64,000 bases of DNA. Origin: Bacilli bacterium (GTDB lineage: Bacteria > Bacillota_I > Bacilli_A > RFN20 > CAG-826). The notes below the pieces were generated by a model. That model made no database searches. It saw nothing but the letters and a program-made list of their open reading frames with translations, and was not told the origin of the DNA. Location of the stretch: the NCBI GenBank assembly GCA_031556235.1, contig JAVBTH010000001.1, positions 140,982-204,981 on the forward strand, written 5' to 3'. The position numbers were made by a program, and so were the translations under genes. This document shows, piece by piece, positions 9,591 through 60,071 of the stretch (its first letter is position 1; the number at the start of each line of letters is the position of its first letter).

Positions 9591-9681
9591 GGAGAAATAC
9601 CCAAGTGGCTGAAGGGGCTGGCTTGGAAAGCTAGTAGGCCTGTAACAGGGCGCGGGGGTTCAAATCCCCCTTTCTCCGCCA
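9591..9681 (+). tRNA. tRNA-Ser (anticodon GGA), type II with long variable arm and encoded CCA
   Basis: Hand-folded cloverleaf: acceptor GGAGAAA/TTTCTCC, anticodon loop TTGGAAA, T-arm GGGGGTTCAAATCCCCC. Confidence 0.9.
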
Positions 9682-37414: not shown

Positions 37415-37498
<84 letters not shown>

Positions 37499-50381: not shown

Positions 50382-51461
50382 TTATCTTTTTACTATTATC
50401 GATAACAGCTCTTTTTCAATCCATGTTCTAACATTATCTATTATTGGAAGAAAGGATCCATCTAAAGGAAAACGATATCCTTGACAAGCGCCTTCACAAT
50501 GGTCACCACCAGTTTTGCGATAGCAACCAAATCCTTTTAGAATTTTTTGCTGTAAGGTTCCTGGAAAACTTTCAATAATACTAGGGAAATTAATAATGTT
50601 ATTTGATTTGATAATAAAACATATTCCATTTATTGAAGATGAAAATGTAAAAATCTCTTTGCTTTTATAAGAATAGATAATCTTAATACGAAAATATTTT
50701 GATTCAACTCTTTGTGTTAATCCTGATTGAATAAACAACTTATCAGTTTGCATAACAAAATCTTTTAAATCTGTTGGTAAAGGATTAATGAAATCCTTAA
50801 AATCCATATCTATTTGATCATTGCTATCTATTAGTATTTTATAATCGCAACTTAGAAAATAGTCTTGATATCCGAAGGTTCTTAATTTGCATTGCGCGGT
50901 AGCCATTGCTTTCATCCCTACTAGCATCATAGGATTATCTGGATATGATATCTTCAAAAATTCTAATTTTTCAATATTTGGATTTTTTTCATCTAAATTA
51001 ATTCCTTCAAAGCAAAAGCCACAGTTCTTTAGGTGTCGAAATCCTTCAATTAATTTTGAAATGCTCATTTTTGTTTTTGAATTCAAATTTGCGTTTCCTA
51101 CTAAACAAAGCGACTCGAAATCTTTTAATAATAAAGATTTATTGACATCAGATAGTTCACCATAGAAACCAATATTCACTAATATGCTAACTAAGTTATT
51201 GAATAAAGGAAAATCCTTAGATAAGGTTGTATTATCTTCAAACCCATGAGTTTTTTTAGTAACCTCTTCTCCAACAGTTTTATTGTTTGAAATATAATCA
51301 CAGAATCTATACAGAAACTTTCTAAAACCAAAAACACCTTCTCTAATACTCTCTTCATTGGAAATATTTTTGAATATTGGTTTAATTGAATAATTTTCAA
51401 GGATAGAGGTTGGCATTATCCCTTTTATGAATAAAGCCATATCTTTAGTTTGTTTTGGCAT
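50382..51461 (-). CDS. Hypothetical protein (359 aa) with a Cys-rich C-terminal patch (GFGCYRKTGGDHCEGACQGY)
   Basis: ORF track. Confidence 0.5.
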   Translation of the reverse strand: MPKQTKDMALFIKGIMPTSILENYSIKPIFKNISNEESIREGVFGFRKFLYRFCDYISNNKTVGEEVTKKTHGFEDNTTLSKDFPLFNNLVSILVNIGFYGELSDVNKSLLLKDFESLCLVGNANLNSKTKMSISKLIEGFRHLKNCGFCFEGINLDEKNPNIEKLEFLKISYPDNPMMLVGMKAMATAQCKLRTFGYQDYFLSCDYKILIDSNDQIDMDFKDFINPLPTDLKDFVMQTDKLFIQSGLTQRVESKYFRIKIIYSYKSKEIFTFSSSINGICFIIKSNNIINFPSIIESFPGTLQQKILKGFGCYRKTGGDHCEGACQGYRFPLDGSFLPIIDNVRTWIEKELLSIIVKR

Positions 51462-51746
51462 AGTATTGTCCTCATCTCTTATTTCGTTGTATTACTTTTT
51501 AAGTTTTTATAATTATCCATCAACTTTTCTATTTTTTGCTTTCTTAAAAACGAAAACTCATTTTGTTTTCAAATTTATCGAGAACACGCTGCCATATTAC
51601 CTGTCTATGGCAAAGTAATCTAATAGTCTGCTGTGTGCCATGGACCAGTTAAATGATGAAATATCGCTCTCTGAAACTAGCAAAGCAACATATTTTTAGC
51701 AATTTTCATATCGAAAATTTTCATGATTTTATTGATTTTTTAATAA

Positions 51747-52277
51747 TTATTTTAACTTTTCCAAAATATCCTCTTCTATTTTTTTTATATAATCGGACAT
51801 ATATATCCAATTCGGTTTTGCATTTTCATCAACTGGCAGTTTTATTTTAATTGTTTTCATTTGTTTATATCTAAATTGTTTTTTAAAACTAAAATTCGAG
51901 CAAATAGTATTGTGTATAACCGTGCATAAAAATAATCCTACATTTTTTCCATAGTTACCTATTACTGGATAAACGTTATCATCACAGACAAAACTATAAT
52001 CGTGATAAAAACAATTTCCAAACATATCTATTGTCACGCAATTGCTATATATTCTATTTCTTTCGGGAGGTGTAATATATTCTGATATGCCATTATTAAA
52101 CTGACCTGCCGTTATTAAAGGAACATCTCCAATTTTTCTATCGCTTTTCTTTAACCTAGCACCATGTTCACAATTTGGAAACAAATCAGTAAAATCAAAA
52201 TCCATCCAATCAAATGTTTCTAAAATTGTTTCTTTTTTAATTTTGCAAATAAAATTATTAATAAACGGAAAATTCAT
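51747..52277 (-). CDS. hsdS: Half-size Type I restriction-modification specificity subunit (single target-recognition domain HsdS)
   Basis: GDVPLITAGQFNNGI TRD pattern and a C-terminal conserved region ...IKIKLP...; start overlaps the stop of the upstream MTase gene. Confidence 0.6.
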   Translation of the reverse strand: MNFPFINNFICKIKKETILETFDWMDFDFTDLFPNCEHGARLKKSDRKIGDVPLITAGQFNNGISEYITPPERNRIYSNCVTIDMFGNCFYHDYSFVCDDNVYPVIGNYGKNVGLFLCTVIHNTICSNFSFKKQFRYKQMKTIKIKLPVDENAKPNWIYMSDYIKKIEEDILEKLK

Positions 52278-54025
52278 TATTTTACCTCCTTATTTTTCAA
52301 AGCGAATATATACCAGTCATAGTCTTTAATCGCCTGAATTTCTTTTTTAATACTATCCATTTTTATTTTAGCTTCTTCATTTTCAAATAAAACTCTTTCG
52401 AGCACTGTCTTGTAAAATTTTTCTTCACTAAGCACATTTTTTTCAACTTCCACATCATATTCTAATGTTCTTGAAATTTGTTTTGTTTCATGATCTAAAT
52501 TATTTGTGATTATATTAGTCCAATATGAAAGAAGATTATCCTTCCCGTCATCAATCCAGCGATCATTTATATCTTGTTTTCCAGCATTCTTTACTGTTAC
52601 TAATTCATCTTCTTTTATCCAATACTTGATTATGTGTTTATCATTATGTGGAGCATCAGTTTGGAAGATAAATATTGACGTTGTAACTCCTGCTATACCT
52701 TGCCATGTTTTTTCAGGCATTTTAATGATTTTTAATAAAGTATGTTTATTAAAAATGGATTTGACTATTTTTTCTGATTTTGTACATAGCGTTCTATCTG
52801 GTAGAATAAAAGCACAAAGAGAATCTTTTGAAACATTATCTAAAACATTTTTAACAATTTTAATGCCTGTTTGGTTTTCAAAAGGTGGATTCATGAGTAC
52901 TTTATTAATTCCCAGAGACTTTATCCATTCACCTACCTTATTACTTGTTGAATCTCCTTGTATAATATTTGTCTTTCCATCTTTATGCATTAGCATATTT
53001 ACGCATGATAATACATACAATTCTCTTGCCCATTCAATTCCGTAAAGACTATTTACAATTTCATTTTTTCTATCGGGTCTTTCTTTCAGCATTTTGCTCA
53101 TTGATTTAGTTAAAAAAGTACCAGACCCGCAAGCAGCATCCAAAATTCTGGAATTACTGTTTACACTTATAATTTTATACATTAAATCAGTCCAAATTTC
53201 AGGAGTAAATACTTGACCATGCTCTCTTTTCCCAGCATATCTTCTAAATTCATTAAAGAAAATTGCCATCGCATCTTTCCCATCCCATGAATATGAATTA
53301 ATCCATTCACTTATTTCATAAATATCATTATATATAGATTCTACACTTTTTTGTCCATCTTCATTCAAAGAGATTTTTTCAAATTCTTCAGACAGTAAAA
53401 ACAATTTACTATCCTTATGCATTGATCCGGTAGGGATTCTTTCCTTTATAATTTTAGCAATTGATTTTTTCATATCTTCAAAAGAAGTTGTTGGTACAGC
53501 TAAATCTTCATCTATTGCTATTCTAATACCTACTAGTGCCAATCCAGTAAATTTCATTCTAGATATTAAATCTGCGAGACCTAAACTATGTAATTTTTTA
53601 TTAATAGATTGAACTTTTAAATATATTGATTCTTTTGGAACAGGAACTTCAAATAATCCTTCATAATATGACATGGGTTTCAACAATTTTTCTGATGGAT
53701 GAGTTAAAGAAATGCATTCCTCTGTTTCAATATCATAAAGTATTCCAACTATTTTTCTTGTTTTCATTGCTTTTTCTAATTTTATGTAATTCTCTAATTG
53801 CTCTATATAAAATTCCAATTTTTTATTTTGTTTTTTTTCTATTAATACAGCAACACCATTATGGTAAAATCTCCTATCCAAAAACTTGTTTAACTTATCT
53901 CCTTCATTTTTTTCCAAAATTTTAGTTATTTGCTTTTTTGAAAAATACTTTTGGTATGAATATTCATTGTTTTCAATATTTGAAGTTAAAAATTCTTCAC
54001 CTATTATTTTTTCGAAATCTCTCAT
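52277..54025 (-). CDS. hsdM: N6-adenine DNA methyltransferase (HsdM-like, gamma-class)
   Basis: Motif X GQVFTPEIW, motif I ILDAACGSGTFL, motif IV NPPF. Confidence 0.8.
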   Translation of the reverse strand: MRDFEKIIGEEFLTSNIENNEYSYQKYFSKKQITKILEKNEGDKLNKFLDRRFYHNGVAVLIEKKQNKKLEFYIEQLENYIKLEKAMKTRKIVGILYDIETEECISLTHPSEKLLKPMSYYEGLFEVPVPKESIYLKVQSINKKLHSLGLADLISRMKFTGLALVGIRIAIDEDLAVPTTSFEDMKKSIAKIIKERIPTGSMHKDSKLFLLSEEFEKISLNEDGQKSVESIYNDIYEISEWINSYSWDGKDAMAIFFNEFRRYAGKREHGQVFTPEIWTDLMYKIISVNSNSRILDAACGSGTFLTKSMSKMLKERPDRKNEIVNSLYGIEWARELYVLSCVNMLMHKDGKTNIIQGDSTSNKVGEWIKSLGINKVLMNPPFENQTGIKIVKNVLDNVSKDSLCAFILPDRTLCTKSEKIVKSIFNKHTLLKIIKMPEKTWQGIAGVTTSIFIFQTDAPHNDKHIIKYWIKEDELVTVKNAGKQDINDRWIDDGKDNLLSYWTNIITNNLDHETKQISRTLEYDVEVEKNVLSEEKFYKTVLERVLFENEEAKIKMDSIKKEIQAIKDYDWYIFALKNKEVK

Positions 54026-54388
54026 AAATACTGCTCCTTAATGCATTTTATTATTTACATGCTGCTTTATATTATTTTATTTGCTTATTCAGAATAGGCA
54101 ATTATTTTATGCTGCCACTTCATAATACAGTTGCTATCAAATTGTTGAATACTGATTTTCTACAATAAACAGCTATGTGACAATACTTTTATCTACTGTA
54201 AAGCAATACGACTGTCTCAACGTGTGCGGAGTTATAGAAATTGCTTTAAAAAATATTGCTGAGACTATGCAAGAGATATAGCATTTAAGTAATTAATTGA
54301 ACTCAAAAATAAAAAATTACTATATAATAAAAAAAATCAACTTTGAGAAATTGATTCTTTTTGGTAAAATATTAATGGTGATTAGATT

Positions 54389-55009
54389 ATGATAACAGTA
54401 AGAAAAATACAAAATGTTATAAAAGAAAATGGCAGAATCTCGACTCTTGCAGATATTTATTCTACATATGAAAAATTATATCCAGAAGATTTAATTGGAA
54501 AGAAAGCTTGGACTTCTTTGATTAGAAATTTAATATATTTTCATGCCGAAGAATGTGATAAACATAACAATAAATATCCTATTCTTTTTTATTCAGTAAA
54601 TGGAAAGGGCTCTGGGGTTTGGGGGCTATGTGATGTTCCAAATAGCGAGGTTAATTTACCAAGTATATCTTCACTAAATGATATGGTATTTCCTGAAGGA
54701 GCATTGTATGAATATCGTCATATGAAAAAAGAAAGAAATAGCAAATTAATTCATGAAGCAAAAAAACGTTTTTTACAACAACATGGAAAAATATATTGTC
54801 AGATATGTGGTTTTAATTTTTATGAAAAATATGGAGTTATTGGCAAAGATTTTATTGAAGCTCATCACATAATTCCGATTTCAGATGTAGATGCTGAATA
54901 TGATGCAAAAGTAGAAGATATTATTTTAGTATGTTCAAATTGCCATAGCATGCTTCATATTAAGCGTCCTTGGCTTACTGCAGATGAATTGAAAAAATTA
55001 TTAAAATAG
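54389..55009 (+). CDS. HNH endonuclease with an N-terminal winged-helix-like domain
   Basis: CQICG...EAHHIIP...VCSNCHSMLH His-Me finger with two CxxC pairs. Confidence 0.75.
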   Translation: MITVRKIQNVIKENGRISTLADIYSTYEKLYPEDLIGKKAWTSLIRNLIYFHAEECDKHNNKYPILFYSVNGKGSGVWGLCDVPNSEVNLPSISSLNDMVFPEGALYEYRHMKKERNSKLIHEAKKRFLQQHGKIYCQICGFNFYEKYGVIGKDFIEAHHIIPISDVDAEYDAKVEDIILVCSNCHSMLHIKRPWLTADELKKLLK

Positions 55010-55025
55010 AAGCACTATCAAATAA

Positions 55026-55056
55026 AAAACGACTTCAGTAAATAGTCGTTTTAAAG
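55026..55056. terminator. Bidirectional terminator (aacgact/agtcgtt stem flanked by A/T runs)
   Basis: Between the convergent HNH gene and the 395-aa gene. Confidence 0.6.
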
Positions 55057-55068
55057 TTTATATGCTTT

Positions 55069-56256
55069 TTAATCGTAAATTCCTAAATTTAATCTTTTTT
55101 CTAATATTTCAAATATTTCTCTTGTGGAACTTAAGTATTTTGGCCTTGCATCCAAATACCTATTTACTCCTTCTTCATCCATGCTTTTAATTGTATTTGA
55201 TAAAAATGAGTGAACAACATTTTCTATTGATGAAAAAGTTAAATATAATTGATAAATACAATCTGCATGAAAAGCTCCTCTATTATAAGTCGCATGAACT
55301 GCAGACGAATGGATAACCTTACTAGCATCTTTATAAAAATTATAGCGATGACTCTGATTTGCTAACTTAGATAAGGTTTCTTTAAAATTTAAATTTCTAT
55401 TCTCATAATCTTTTATTCTTAAAATCCAACCTAAATTTATAAAAGCTTTTTTATTATTCATTTTATAATATTCCATCTCAGTTTTTAAGGATTCAGATAG
55501 TTCCTTATTCTCTTCATTATCATCATAGTCTAGTGGCAAGTATTTTAAATGATCAACATATGCTTTACTTAAAATATTATCATAATTATTTAATAAAATT
55601 ATAGTGCATTCTAATTCATGACAAGTTCTCCAAAGGCTATAAGCTTCACTATCATATCCATTTGATAGCAAGTCTGCAATTGCATTAATTGTACATAATG
55701 ATTTTACAAACAAATTAAGTAATGTGGTTATTTTTTCATCATTAGTTTTTAATTTCGGATAAATTTCCAAAATGCAATGATTAATAAACCTTGTATACAT
55801 TTTTAAATTTCCTATTTCAGGCGAATATTTATTAGTAAATGACAACGGATTTATCTGAAGATGCTCATTAAATATTAACTTTGCAGTAACTTCTTCAACT
55901 ATTTTATTTTGATAATTTATATCATCTTGTAGAGATGCTCTTGCACTGTCTTCTAGATGGGATGTTCTAAAATAATGTTCATATGCAATATATGGAATCA
56001 TGTCTTTGAATTGCATATATTCATGAAGAGGAACATTTAAATTTCTTTTTGCCATTTCTTGAAAATAAAAACCATTAACCATTCCTAAAATCTTTTTAAC
56101 AAAATTCTTCTTGATTTTATCCCTATTATTTATTTTGGACCAAATCGAATCAAATTCCATTTCCAAAAAAGATTGCATTTGCTTATTCATTAATTCAAGT
56201 GCTTGTTTTTGACTATTACTAAGCATAACTTTATTATTTATAGTTACAGAATTCAA
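55069..56256 (-). CDS. Hypothetical protein (395 aa from a TTG start with a GGGGTGA SD; alternative ATG at 56226)
   Basis: ORF track; predicted all-alpha; no motif recognised. Confidence 0.5.
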   Translation of the reverse strand: MNSVTINNKVMLSNSQKQALELMNKQMQSFLEMEFDSIWSKINNRDKIKKNFVKKILGMVNGFYFQEMAKRNLNVPLHEYMQFKDMIPYIAYEHYFRTSHLEDSARASLQDDINYQNKIVEEVTAKLIFNEHLQINPLSFTNKYSPEIGNLKMYTRFINHCILEIYPKLKTNDEKITTLLNLFVKSLCTINAIADLLSNGYDSEAYSLWRTCHELECTIILLNNYDNILSKAYVDHLKYLPLDYDDNEENKELSESLKTEMEYYKMNNKKAFINLGWILRIKDYENRNLNFKETLSKLANQSHRYNFYKDASKVIHSSAVHATYNRGAFHADCIYQLYLTFSSIENVVHSFLSNTIKSMDEEGVNRYLDARPKYLSSTREIFEILEKRLNLGIYD

Positions 56257-56350
56257 TTTATCACCCCATAATTATAAATATTATATCATTTAAAGTTGTT
56301 TTTTCAAAATGAAAACCACTTAATCTTCATATGTGGTCTTGCTTATATTT

Positions 56351-57205
56351 CTACACTTTCAATTGATTTTTATATTTTTCACCGAAATTATTAATCAAAT
56401 CCTTTGCCCAGTTCTCAATATTAATATTTTCTTCAATAACAAATTCTTGACCTCTACATGCCGATTTAAAGTGATCATCTTTCCAATTATCCGCTGTATG
56501 GTACGTAATAGTTAAATTTTTAAAAAAATCTGGTAAATCCCATTTAGTTCTAGTCATCCCTTTTTTAGTTAAATTCAATTTTTCATTATATGAAAACATT
56601 CCATAACCTTTAATTCCTTCATTAAATGAACATTTTTCTCTAGCGATATATATGCAATTATTATCATTATACTTTTTATAATCAGCATGAGGATGCAGTT
56701 TCAGCCAGTTTGGTATTTCATCCTTTTTTGGATGAATAATTTTCCCAATTTCTAAGTATCCAAATATAATGTGCTTATCTTCATTATTTTTGAATTTATT
56801 CTTATTGTTTACAATTTCGACCTCCCTAAACCAGCCAAAAAATAAAAATAGATCTCCTTCTTTAATTTTCTCTTTTTCCAGATGTCCTTGTGCACTATCT
56901 ACTTGTCCAAAACTCCCTAGCCAATCATTATCCCTTTCAACTGAATTAAAAGTAATATCTGGATCTAAATGACAAGTTATATTATCATCTAGTTCTCGCT
57001 TTAACTTATTTAGCCAAACATGATCATTTAGCTGGTACATTATATCTATTAATCTTTTCCCGCTGGATGTTTTTAAATTTGAATAACATCTTTTATCATC
57101 TAAACTTGGTATTGGAAAAGTAACAAGTTCGCCATCTGGCAATATAACACTAGGGTATCCACCATATCCAGAATCAAACCCTTTTCTACTTAAAATAACC
57201 TTCAT
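56351..57205 (-). CDS. Hypothetical protein (284 aa), N-terminus MKVILSRKGFDSGYGG; possible PUA/ASCH-like beta-barrel segment
   Basis: ORF track; AAAGGAA SD. Confidence 0.5.
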   Translation of the reverse strand: MKVILSRKGFDSGYGGYPSVILPDGELVTFPIPSLDDKRCYSNLKTSSGKRLIDIMYQLNDHVWLNKLKRELDDNITCHLDPDITFNSVERDNDWLGSFGQVDSAQGHLEKEKIKEGDLFLFFGWFREVEIVNNKNKFKNNEDKHIIFGYLEIGKIIHPKKDEIPNWLKLHPHADYKKYNDNNCIYIAREKCSFNEGIKGYGMFSYNEKLNLTKKGMTRTKWDLPDFFKNLTITYHTADNWKDDHFKSACRGQEFVIEENINIENWAKDLINNFGEKYKNQLKV

Positions 57206-57236
57206 TAATAATCATTCCTTTTTAAAACTTTTATAA

Positions 57237-57518
57237 TTATTTCTTATTTTCAACAAATATTTTATAAGCTCTTAATGCACTAATTACAGAATTATGGCTT
57301 TTTCTGCCATTGGCTTCTTTAATTCCTCCGACACCATAGTCGATTACGAATCTATTAATTTGTGATGCTAGTGCTTCCCAAGTAAGTCTTTCATCAGCAC
57401 ATACTCCTGCTATTCTTTTACAATAATCATAAACAGTGCTAGGATTACCGCTAGGCGTTAGCACTTTATATCCTTTATTAATAAGAAATTGTCTAAATTG
57501 CTCTTCTAAATAATTCAT
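57237..57518 (-). CDS. Hypothetical small protein (93 aa), first gene of a 3-gene cassette
   Basis: ORF track; AGGAG SD 10 nt upstream. Confidence 0.5.
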   Translation of the reverse strand: MNYLEEQFRQFLINKGYKVLTPSGNPSTVYDYCKRIAGVCADERLTWEALASQINRFVIDYGVGGIKEANGRKSHNSVISALRAYKIFVENKK

Positions 57519-57527
57519 TAAAATACA

Positions 57528-57555
57528 CTCCTATTATGTTACAAATATTATACCA
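57528..57555 (-). promoter_or_regulatory. Extended -10 promoter (TGgTATAAT) and AGGAG SD driving the 93-aa gene
   Basis: Minus-strand reading: ...TGGTATAATATTTGTAACATAATAGGAGTGTATTTTATG. Confidence 0.4.
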
Positions 57556-57580
57556 TACAATCATCATGTCTTTGTAAACA

Positions 57581-57618
57581 AAAAAAGCCACTATCCCCCG
57601 ATTAAGGAAGTAGTGGCT
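57581..57618 (-). terminator. Intrinsic terminator ending the phage late/lysis transcript (agccacta/tagtggct stem with a U7 run on the minus strand)
   Basis: 8-bp stem, 17-nt loop, and TTTTTTT on the minus strand immediately after the stop of the 57624..58112 gene. Confidence 0.65.
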
Positions 57619-57623
57619 TACTT

Positions 57624-58112
57624 TTATTTTGAATTCAAATATTCATCTATTAATTTTTCGGATTCCGATAAAGTATTTTTACCTTCCATTTTATTGCTGA
57701 AAGATACATATTCATCAATAATTGAATTTATCTTACTTTCATTTAATTCTACAAAATCTACTGCTTTAGAAATTGATCCAGTGGTATTAGTAATCCATTC
57801 CGATAAGCGAAGGATTACTTCTTTTTTCTTTTCATCACCACTTAGATACTGCTCTCCTTTTTCTTTAGCGATAGCATTCTTTTCTTCTACAATAAGAATG
57901 AACTCTTTTATTGCTTTTTGGACATTGTCATCAAAAATAATGTCTTTTGCTTTTATTACCAAATCAGCAACATTCGAAGAAGTCTTTTTTAAATCATCTT
58001 TAACTTCTTTTATAACATCAGCAAAACTTTTATTCTTACCTAATTTACTAGTTACATATAAAGCTAAAACTGCTAATAAAGCAATTAATAACATAATCTC
58101 AAGTGTTGTCAT
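57624..58112 (-). CDS. Phage membrane protein (N-terminal TM plus coiled coil; XhlA/holin-associated-like)
   Basis: MTTLEIMLLIALLAVLALYV TM segment, then a charged helical region; position at the end of the late operon. Confidence 0.4.
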   Translation of the reverse strand: MTTLEIMLLIALLAVLALYVTSKLGKNKSFADVIKEVKDDLKKTSSNVADLVIKAKDIIFDDNVQKAIKEFILIVEEKNAIAKEKGEQYLSGDEKKKEVILRLSEWITNTTGSISKAVDFVELNESKINSIIDEYVSFSNKMEGKNTLSESEKLIDEYLNSK

Positions 58113-58416
58113 TTTTCTTTCCTCCTAATTTTTCATAAAGATTGACATGTGAATCCTCGAGTCTTGAAACACGATGTTCCAAAACATTAACATCTTTTTT
58201 TATTGATTTGATATCCTGTGAATGGATTTCCAGTAGATTCAGCATCTTACCATTTTGCTTTTCTATTTTAGAAAGGTTTTGCAAGACTTCTGCATTATTA
58301 CTATCATTCTTTTTTTGTTGTGATTTGAACTGCTTAATAGTTGTTAATACAACTACAACAACCATAACAATTAAATAGATAATATTATCTAATTTAAAAA
58401 GTTGATCTATGCTCAT
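58099..58416 (-). CDS. Phage membrane protein (TM plus coiled coil; XhlA-like)
   Basis: IIYLIVMVVVVVLTT TM segment plus a coiled-coil region; overlaps its neighbours. Confidence 0.4.
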   Translation of the reverse strand: MSIDQLFKLDNIIYLIVMVVVVVLTTIKQFKSQQKKNDSNNAEVLQNLSKIEKQNGKMLNLLEIHSQDIKSIKKDVNVLEHRVSRLEDSHVNLYEKLGGKKNDNT

Positions 58417-59066
58417 TTGTTCAATTCCTCCTTAAATTTTCTTATGTATTCTAAAGACTCTTTTATTTCTGCGTGGAGTCTTACTCCAGTTTCACTATTC
58501 CAATTATGCTTATAACTTAATAATTTAGTTCGCCATGGTTCTGCTATATCAAGAGTCAGCTTTCCAGTTTCTTTATAATTTTCAATGACTCCTCTTAACC
58601 TAAAGACATGATACATTTTTTTAGTTGGCTTGGCTGATTCATTATAGTGGTAATAATAATACTGCAGATTCTTATCTAAGAATTCTTTATATCTATCAAT
58701 CAATTTGATATTTATAAATTCTTTATATTCACTTTCATATGCTGGATTTAAATAAATTAATGTTTCATCAATTGATAAAGCATCATCAATAAAAATCTTA
58801 TTATAAATAGGTAAGTCGCTACTCATATCTTGTCTTGTTAAGAATTTATCCTCGCCATAAATAAAATAATCAATCCCATCTATTTCTGTATGTATAAAAC
58901 CTTTTAATCCATTTACAAATACATTAACATCAATGTCACTGTATTCATCTTCATAAATTCCAAACGCTAAAGAACCACCAAAATACATAAACATAATATC
59001 CTTGTCTTTTAATAGTCCTTTTGCATAAGTAATAATTTTTTCTTTATCAATATTCTTTGGTACCAT
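58413..59066 (-). CDS. Nucleotidyltransferase (NTP_transf_2 / pol-beta superfamily; ANT(4')/Lnu-like architecture)
   Basis: FGGSLAFGIYEDEYSDIDVNVFV matches the G[GS]...DxD minimal-NTase signature; compare KNTase GVYGSLGRQTDGPYSDIEMMCVM. Confidence 0.6.
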   Translation of the reverse strand: MVPKNIDKEKIITYAKGLLKDKDIMFMYFGGSLAFGIYEDEYSDIDVNVFVNGLKGFIHTEIDGIDYFIYGEDKFLTRQDMSSDLPIYNKIFIDDALSIDETLIYLNPAYESEYKEFINIKLIDRYKEFLDKNLQYYYYHYNESAKPTKKMYHVFRLRGVIENYKETGKLTLDIAEPWRTKLLSYKHNWNSETGVRLHAEIKESLEYIRKFKEELNK

Positions 59067-59385
59067 CTTTCTTTTCCTCCTTATTTTCTAGATTCAACGA
59101 TTCCATATCATCTTCTGCATCTTCAAAATTTATTGCATTTTCTTTTAACCACCAATAAGCTGCTTCAATCACATTTGAATTTAAAAAAAGTGGAAAATCC
59201 TCTTCAGGAACTTCCACATCGACCATGTCCAATGGTTCACAGTTTTGCCTTCTAGTTTCTTTTGAAACGAATGAAGCAATACATATAATTACTTTTTTCA
59301 CTAAATAATTAACTGATATTGCAACGACTCGATGGTAACTCGCACTACAACCATAACTTGAATTAATTTCTTTGATTATTGCCAT
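59047..59385 (-). CDS. Hypothetical protein with an acidic C-terminal tail (112 aa); its 3' end overlaps the NTase start by 20 nt
   Basis: ORF track. Confidence 0.45.
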   Translation of the reverse strand: MAIIKEINSSYGCSASYHRVVAISVNYLVKKVIICIASFVSKETRRQNCEPLDMVDVEVPEEDFPLFLNSNVIEAAYWWLKENAINFEDAEDDMESLNLENKEEKKDGTKEY

Positions 59386-59393
59386 TTATTAAC

Positions 59394-60071
59394 CTACTTT
59401 CTTCTTGACCGATAAACTGAAATACTAAATGACAAACTTCCAATATCTAATCCTGGATTAATCAATATTCCACCAAGTGAAGCATCAATGACATGAGCAA
59501 ACATACAGTTGGTTATAGGTGTATTACTTTGATCAGATGCACCAGTTATACTTGTCCCATGAACCATCCACGTATATGTCGAGCTTATACTACTTTCAAA
59601 TGTTGGAGATATTTCAAAATCAATAATCTTGGTTGTTGCATACGAAGCTGACGTCGAATTCGTATAAGCATCATAGATATAAAAAGAAGTGGTGTTTTTT
59701 CCACTTGCTTTCGATATTGAAGTATAATTATCACCTAAGTACATGCAAGTGAATGAACCACTCATTGCAGATGAGCCATTATAAGTGTAATAATTAAAAA
59801 CCGTATTTGAAGTATCTGTTCCTGATGTAGCTGCTATAATATGAATTTTATATACATAGTTCCTATCGAAGTTATAGTTTAATTTATAGTTGCTAACTGC
59901 TCCTTCATAACTAAAAACAAGTTCATAGTCTCCACCACCAATTTTGACCATTGATGAGGCACTTCTTATATAAAGTTCATTAGCACTATAGTTAAATGCC
60001 ATCTCACCAATATTAGTAACATTTCCAGTTGACGGAGTTGAAGTTCCTCTTTTTAATTGGATAACTGCCAC
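59394..60071 (-). CDS. Phage tail-fibre-like protein (N-terminus MAVIQLKRGT..., paralogous to the neighbouring gene)
   Basis: Shared N-terminal motif with the 60071..60754 gene; Ser/Thr/Asn-rich. Confidence 0.55.
   Translation of the reverse strand: MAVIQLKRGTSTPSTGNVTNIGEMAFNYSANELYIRSASSMVKIGGGDYELVFSYEGAVSNYKLNYNFDRNYVYKIHIIAATSGTDTSNTVFNYYTYNGSSAMSGSFTCMYLGDNYTSISKASGKNTTSFYIYDAYTNSTSASYATTKIIDFEISPTFESSISSTYTWMVHGTSITGASDQSNTPITNCMFAHVIDASLGGILINPGLDIGSLSFSISVYRSRRK

Follow-up and report, generated by a model that had tools for sequence, protein, structure and literature searches.

We looked at a segment of three genes carried on the minus strand (window positions 55,069 to 57,518) of a contig from a Bacilli bacterium (JAVBTH010000001.1), just past the end of a prophage late operon; the window, meaning the whole stretch of DNA analysed, is 64,000 nucleotides (nt) long. 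The genes encode proteins of 93, 284 and 395 amino acids (aa). A preliminary description had proposed them as a novel three-gene defence or moron system whose proteins carry no motif of a known family. The segment is read here, with a probability of roughly 0.6, as a mosaic of separately acquired accessory genes, organised in two transcription units within an island of low guanine-cytosine (GC) content between the end of the late operon and a restriction-type cluster. Nmad3 and DUF5677, two known but uncharacterised families, each gain a new member here, the 284-aa and the 395-aa gene respectively, and the kind of place is familiar; the earlier statement on families was wrong for both. On its structure model, the 93-aa protein is a stand-alone core-binding (CB, SAM-like) domain of the tyrosine recombinases. 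The triad is not conserved, and each gene has its own, different partners elsewhere.

The lack of conservation was seen from the side of each gene. Outside the window, the exact proteins were found on a single contig, which represents the same locus. For Nmad3, the sample consisted of 80 species-representative genome loci, read within 10 kb of the gene, and 13 viral loci, that is, 93 loci. A phmmer search within 10 kb of Nmad3 in the 80 genome loci detected relatives of neither the 93-aa nor the 395-aa protein, and the 13 viral loci contained neither the 93-aa family, searched with hidden Markov models (HMMs), nor a relative of the 395-aa protein, searched with BLASTP. Likewise, no Nmad3 was present in about 45 loci of the 93-aa family, and the neighbourhoods read for four 395-aa relatives contained neither Nmad3 nor a 93-aa relative. 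Since no second triad occurs in the loci examined, the three genes were not seen together outside this locus. The claim of a novel three-gene defence system fails on this point, which the preliminary description had itself named as a refutation, and should not be carried forward.

The organisation of the segment in two units follows from the features listed here.

57237-57518, minus strand: gene of the 93-aa protein, open reading frame (ORF) with ATG start
56351-57205, minus strand: gene of the 284-aa protein (Nmad3), ORF
55069-56256, minus strand: gene of the 395-aa protein (DUF5677), ORF with TTG start
57580-57624, minus strand: intrinsic terminator closing the phage late operon, RNA fold of -20.6 kcal/mol (z = -4.75) followed by UUUUUUU
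57547-57555, minus strand: promoter P1, extended -10 element TGgTATAAT (TGGTATAAT), a perfect match read from the sequence
57528-57532, minus strand: AGGAG ribosome-binding site of the 93-aa gene, 9 nt before the ATG
56280-56307, minus strand: promoter P2 of the 395-aa gene, TTGAAA-16 nt-TGaTATAAT, from a two-hexamer scan, with 11 of 12 matches and an upstream TG
56312-56340, minus strand: weak hairpin 3' of the Nmad3 gene, -8.0 kcal/mol (z = -1.2), with 28 of 200 shuffles folding as well
55026-55052, both strands: bidirectional terminator common to the cassette and to a convergent HNH gene, made of an A-run, a 9-bp stem and a T-run, -8.1 kcal/mol (z = -2.5)

The three co-oriented ORFs, the strong terminator ending the late operon, the extended -10 element with its AGGAG sequence and the closing bidirectional terminator had all been described before and are present as described. 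The fold of the late-operon terminator was not equalled by any of 200 shuffled sequences. The 93-aa gene is separated from Nmad3 by 31 nt, and Nmad3 from the 395-aa gene by 94 nt. P1 has no acceptable -35 hexamer at a spacing of 16-18 nt; the nearest TTTACA lies 20 nt away, which explains why P1 was missed by the two-hexamer scan, and P1 would therefore function by its extended -10 element alone. P2, located between the 284-aa and the 395-aa genes, is the top-scoring site of the promoter scan in the region, and the weak hairpin that follows the Nmad3 gene is a possible leaky terminator. Because P2 and this hairpin separate the 284-aa and the 395-aa genes, the cassette is best read as two transcription units, one with the 93-aa gene and Nmad3 under P1, and one with the 395-aa gene alone under P2. 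The earlier idea that P1 drives all three genes is doubtful, given P2. The two promoters have 16 of 18 nt in common (ATGrTATAATATTTrTAA on the minus strand, 56272-56289 and 57539-57556), and their likeness runs 9 nt beyond the -10 hexamer. No further match to this 18-mer (at most 2 mismatches) was found in the window, a uniqueness of weak significance since the pattern was derived from those two sites. A promoter motif common to the 93-aa family genes of other loci was looked for, and none was found.

The 284-aa protein is a full-length member of the Pfam family Nmad3 (nucleotide modification associated domain 3, PF18754; E = 5.6e-67, 226.4 bits against a cut-off of 27), with residues 2-257 aligned to positions 1-246 of the 247 of the profile. 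More than 5,100 relatives were found in bacteria and archaea, typically 45-60% identical, and conservation is very high, with about 50% identity between archaeal and bacterial members. An alignment of 32 sequences contained 41 invariant columns, including S6-R7-K8-G9-F10-D11, H79/D81/D83, D118, H145, H171/H173, N183, H236 and G252-Q-E-F255. The family motifs SRKGFD, HxDPD, GDxFxFFGW, HPH and GQEF are all present in the window protein, and many aromatic residues are invariant in the same alignment. This pattern of invariant His, Asp, Arg, Lys and Glu residues suggests, at the level of sequence, that Nmad3 is an enzyme and not a passive reader. The AlphaFold model is confident (predicted local distance difference test score, pLDDT, of 92.8; predicted template modelling score, pTM, of 0.92), and its core is confidently assigned to the PUA-like (EVE/YTH/ASCH) barrels, as had been guessed for this protein. 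In EVE, YTH, ASCH and McrB N-terminal domains, such a barrel holds a modified base that has been flipped out. At the sequence level, Nmad3 is the only family matched, since no EVE, YTH or ASCH Pfam match was obtained at E <= 0.1. A sequence-profile search of the PDB with Nmad3 gave no match, a fold search of BFVD gave no significant one, and the C-terminal extensions of the longer Nmad3 proteins contain no Pfam domain. Compared with the PUA-like readers VcaM4I, the N-terminal domain of Thermococcus gammatolerans McrB and THYN1, Nmad3 is only 6-14% identical, about twice as large, and differs by an extra N-terminal part and by its many invariant polar residues. In VcaM4I, moreover, the reader and the HNH nuclease form one polypeptide, whereas Nmad3 and the HNH protein of the window are encoded by separate, convergent genes.

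We then considered the genes found next to Nmad3 in other genomes. The sole recurrent neighbour was Nmad2. In 20 of 74 loci its gene immediately precedes Nmad3 in the same orientation, and in most of these 20 the two genes overlap by 4 nt. Such pairs are common in Bacteroidales (loci L034, L035, L047, L052, L055, L063, L073-L077, L081-L086 and others). An HMM of these Nmad2 neighbours run against the non-overlapping ORFs of at least 55 aa did not find Nmad2 in the window. Pairing with Nmad2 is common and not obligatory: the window copy of Nmad3 has all the invariant motifs of its family but comes without Nmad2; the gene before it encodes a CB domain, and the site is the border of a prophage. 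The Nmad names reportedly come from work of Iyer et al. in 2013. The 'NMAD' domain of a validated DefensePredictor system was considered as a possible Nmad3 and ruled out, this domain being Nmad2; that Nmad2 and Nmad3 are paralogues was also rejected, with an hhalign probability of 0.2%.

Some Nmad3 genes are in positions that resemble that of the window copy. On the Clostridium butyricum megaplasmid pCFSA3989 (L154, 251-264 kb), the genes are in the order holin, amidase, SHOCT, two large serine recombinases, Nmad3, AbiJ-NTD4 and ABC-3C-type genes; here, too, Nmad3 comes right after the lysis module of a prophage, the second such case. On a Bacillus toyonensis plasmid, Nmad3 follows an HNH gene, with dcm further on. 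In a Bacteroidales locus (L083, 1247-3658), Nmad3 is closely followed by a 110-aa gene and then by a 412-aa HNH gene, apparently in one operon. The HNH gene that adjoins the cassette belongs to a subfamily that four other lineages also have within 10 kb of Nmad3. The loci where this HNH subfamily lies near Nmad3 belong to distant phyla (L083, 1247-3658; L155, 4473-6837; L072/L093; L062).

The 93-aa protein is helical, as stated before, in its AlphaFold model (pLDDT 88.8). It has no match in Pfam, PHROG, NCBIfam or PADLOC, and a sequence-profile search of the PDB with its family returned only noise. Its 24 homologues of about 90 aa have an invariant TPSGNPSTVY.Y...KSH signature; 10 of them weakly match Phage_int_SAM_1, and the window protein itself falls below the Pfam thresholds. 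The protein modelled as a CB domain stops right after this domain, with no catalytic domain bearing the active-site Tyr. It is therefore not a recombinase, and could bind DNA without recombining it; we infer such DNA binding. It recalls the CB domain of tyrosine recombinases and the integrase-derived repressors SroF of Phi3T and MrpR of SPbeta, and differs from them in being only 93 aa long, without a catalytic domain. With its signature, it forms a conserved family of its own among the CB domains of tyrosine recombinases.

In the roughly 45 loci of the 93-aa family, its gene repeatedly comes first, on the same strand, before varied defence-type genes. These are HsdR-HsdM-HsdS at one place and HsdS elsewhere, a Ser/Thr kinase with a PIN_12 protein and elsewhere a PIN_8 protein, an AAA_21/AAA_15 ATPase, and elsewhere a Y-family polymerase. 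In phages related to the prophage (IMG/VR contigs L087-L091), the homologue and an overlapping protein of 197-204 aa, whose N-terminus is weakly RelB-like, are both encoded in the interval from the tail-chaperone region to the tape-measure gene. Next comes a 290-aa gene similar to pPIWI-associated nucleases, a 319-aa unknown, or no inserted gene; this variable position looks like a cargo slot within the tail module. The domain was found fused to an HNH_2 domain in L114, where the gene is cut by the contig end. A fusion with an HTH_17 domain occurs in L147, and two genes of the family are arranged in tandem in the gut-metagenome contigs L125 and L131. Serine recombinases have been described as markers of defence genes (PMC12632615). 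The situation of the 93-aa family is alike, in that its recombinase-related gene recurs in mobile elements immediately before defence genes of various kinds, as is that of the C. butyricum Nmad3 just after two serine recombinases; the difference is that the marker in the window is not a full serine recombinase, and consists of a tyrosine-recombinase fragment that is catalytically dead. No earlier description of a stand-alone CB family preceding defence genes turned up in our searches. This family, although a side result, is the most interesting lead of the analysis and could be used to look for new cargo genes.

Residues 179-322 of the 395-aa protein match DUF5677 (PF18928; E = 1.9e-13, 51.3 bits against a cut-off of 27.1). 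A word-indexed search for its relatives gave one match only, and a full HMMER scan gave 131 clusters, mostly of 360-400 aa and aligned over nearly their whole length. Residues R210, E214, G276 and H316 are invariant in the family, which has the motifs EAxxxWRTLHExEC, YGW and ASxxxHxS. No match was obtained in a sequence-profile search of the PDB; a smaller DUF5677 alignment had no match in viral contigs, and the 61-sequence alignment was too divergent for a locus search. The relatives are solitary in the loci read. One is located between V-ATPase and HAD genes (L149). Others (L150-L152, 5299-7125) are at the edge of a conjugative element with TraG-like and ArdC genes, directly after a tyrosine integrase. 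The closest one, with 46% identity (L006, 17-2279), is followed by a 153-aa protein and by a protein similar to ADP-ribosyltransferase exotoxins. A conserved upstream partner was considered and rejected, the neighbours of 211 and 218 aa being unrelated to each other and to Nmad3. When 61 members of the family were scanned with PADLOC, no model matched more than one of them, and the stray single-member matches were to unrelated models (E1-E2, MTase_II, Cas3d, PDC-S12). PADLOC v2.0.0 (2023 release) presumably contains models of the Aditi defence system, and a literature search on Aditi returned only unrelated papers. According to HHpred, the DitA protein of Aditi carries DUF5677 (Table S5, PMC13092281). 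DitA and the 395-aa protein have this domain in common, and the difference is that no conserved partner gene was seen beside the 395-aa relatives examined.

Given its position and its neighbours, the accessory ('moron') region is probably related to conflict. Several observations weigh against this and against the mosaic. With PADLOC, the three window proteins gave no match at E <= 0.1. The 31 nt between the 93-aa gene and Nmad3 could reflect a real but rare local partnership. A DUF5677 ORF assayed in Enterococcus faecalis is outside the 5 of 9 candidates reported as protective (PMC12632615). No experiment on Nmad3 (PF18754) was found in the searchable literature, and no relative of Nmad3 or of the 93-aa protein was found in 50,697 sequenced phages. 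The island may also not be part of the prophage. In the 80 genomes, the immediate neighbours of Nmad3 are mostly ordinary genes, and its closest relatives (58-59% identity) are in a housekeeping operon, mnmE-(207 aa)-Nmad3-GNAT-mnmG-rsmG, with gaps of 4-22 nt; in L008, Nmad3 lies directly between mnmE and mnmG. This setting points to a housekeeping role in RNA or nucleotide modification rather than to defence, and hints at a link with the metabolism of tRNA wobble uridine or of acetylated nucleosides. The operon, otherwise highly conserved, was seen with Nmad3 in metagenome genomes of Tenericutes/Bacilli (L156-L161, L008).

From there, Nmad3 could be a general nucleotide- or RNA-modification enzyme, acting for instance on modified tRNA nucleosides or on their breakdown products, that was passively captured into a cassette without a defence role. 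Besides the mnmE-mnmG operon and the identity kept between archaea and bacteria, a GNAT gene directly upstream in 3 further loci and the presence of aTrm56, tRNA synthetase and radical-SAM genes among the neighbours speak for it. However, the window gene has its own strong promoter and is in a low-GC island between prophage and restriction genes, the leader gene before it precedes defence genes elsewhere, and other copies are beside Abi, HNH and dcm genes. We hold this possibility to be real but not likely, and the housekeeping and defence roles of Nmad3 are not mutually exclusive. The widespread Nmad3 family now has a PUA-like assignment, predicted from its model, and two contrasting settings, one in the mnmE-mnmG operon and one beside HNH, Abi and restriction genes. 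That the three genes make up a real new anti-phage system of three components, one that occurs only very rarely, appears quite improbable. The common orientation, the short gaps with terminators on both sides, the position typical of accessory or defence genes, the presence of DUF5677 in DitA and the likeness of P1 and P2, which could mean a common control, are compatible with it. Against these, neither a second triad nor any pair from it was seen in the loci examined, the genes differ in their partners elsewhere, the third one has a promoter of its own, and PADLOC recognises none of the products. The preliminary description had also envisaged that the genes are the missing endolysin or lysis accessories of the prophage. 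We give hardly any credit to this alternative. The cassette does come directly after holin-like genes, and no recognisable endolysin was found in Pfam, PHROGs or NCBIfam searches between the tail genes and the late terminator (57624-60071). Yet the cassette is set off from the late operon by the strong terminator and by a promoter of its own, no hydrolase, holin or spanin domain was found in the three proteins with the same databases, and the models of the 284-aa and 93-aa proteins show a PUA-like and a CB fold, respectively; Nmad3, DUF5677 and the CB domain are not peptidoglycan hydrolases. The absence of relatives of Nmad3 and of the 93-aa protein from the sequenced phages, and of a BFVD match for Nmad3, also argues against it.

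In the mosaic that we favour, the three genes would be conflict or cargo genes. The CB protein may be a DNA-binding leader or regulator, its relatives holding the same place before many defence genes. Nmad3 would recognise and process a modified nucleotide, or a modified base in a nucleic acid, and may work with the neighbouring HNH nuclease, a protein similar to modification-dependent restriction enzymes. The DUF5677 protein would act independently, and these proteins may have an anti-phage role. A bolder proposal is that the 93-aa family marks, and perhaps controls, variable defence-gene slots in Bacillota phages and other mobile elements, and that Nmad3, the gene that it leads in the window, is a new modification-sensing enzyme of phage defence, possibly acting with the HNH nuclease beside it; taken together, we consider this speculative and unlikely.

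The surroundings of the cassette agree with the preliminary description on two points, the adjoining cluster resembling restriction-modification genes and the kind of position where morons reside, past a late terminator, in low-GC DNA, beside restriction-type genes and with tail genes upstream. The GC content is 27-28% at 50-58 kb and 33-36% for most of the remaining window. The genes of the cluster with Pfam and PADLOC matches are the following.

54389-55009, plus strand: HNH endonuclease of 206 aa, convergent with the cassette (Pfam HNH, E = 1.5e-9; PADLOC mREase_IV, E = 4.5e-7)
51747-54025, minus strand: N6-adenine methyltransferase (582 aa; N6_Mtase, E = 1e-22) and half-size specificity subunit (176 aa; Methylase_S, E = 2.9e-14), matching PADLOC type IIG and type I models

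The HNH, methyltransferase and specificity proteins are the only ones of the area that match PADLOC models, and the 206-aa HNH protein resembles type IV methyl-directed restriction enzymes. The methyltransferase is type IIG/type I-like, with a weak match to MAD2 of MADS. The cluster spans 50382-55009 and also contains a 359-aa protein without a family; no obvious HsdR was found in it. On the other side, the last gene of the phage block encodes a 162-aa protein (57624-58112), and the late-operon hairpin lies just past its end. The genes upstream are phage tail genes, one with Dit_N (E = 1e-23), and the other tail proteins are 35-55% identical to the tape-measure, Dit and downstream tail proteins of the IMG/VR contigs L090 and L091. 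The prophage end has no DNA similarity to sequenced phages. The stretch at 57624-60071 encodes a holin-like protein of 105 aa, the 162-aa protein, which has an N-terminal membrane helix, and proteins of 217, 112 and 225 aa without a family; a visible prophage end without a recognisable endolysin is in itself a point of possible use. Finally, two tRNA genes of the window, tRNA-Leu(GAG) at 37415-37498 and tRNA-Ser(GGA) at 9591-9681, are possible integration sites.

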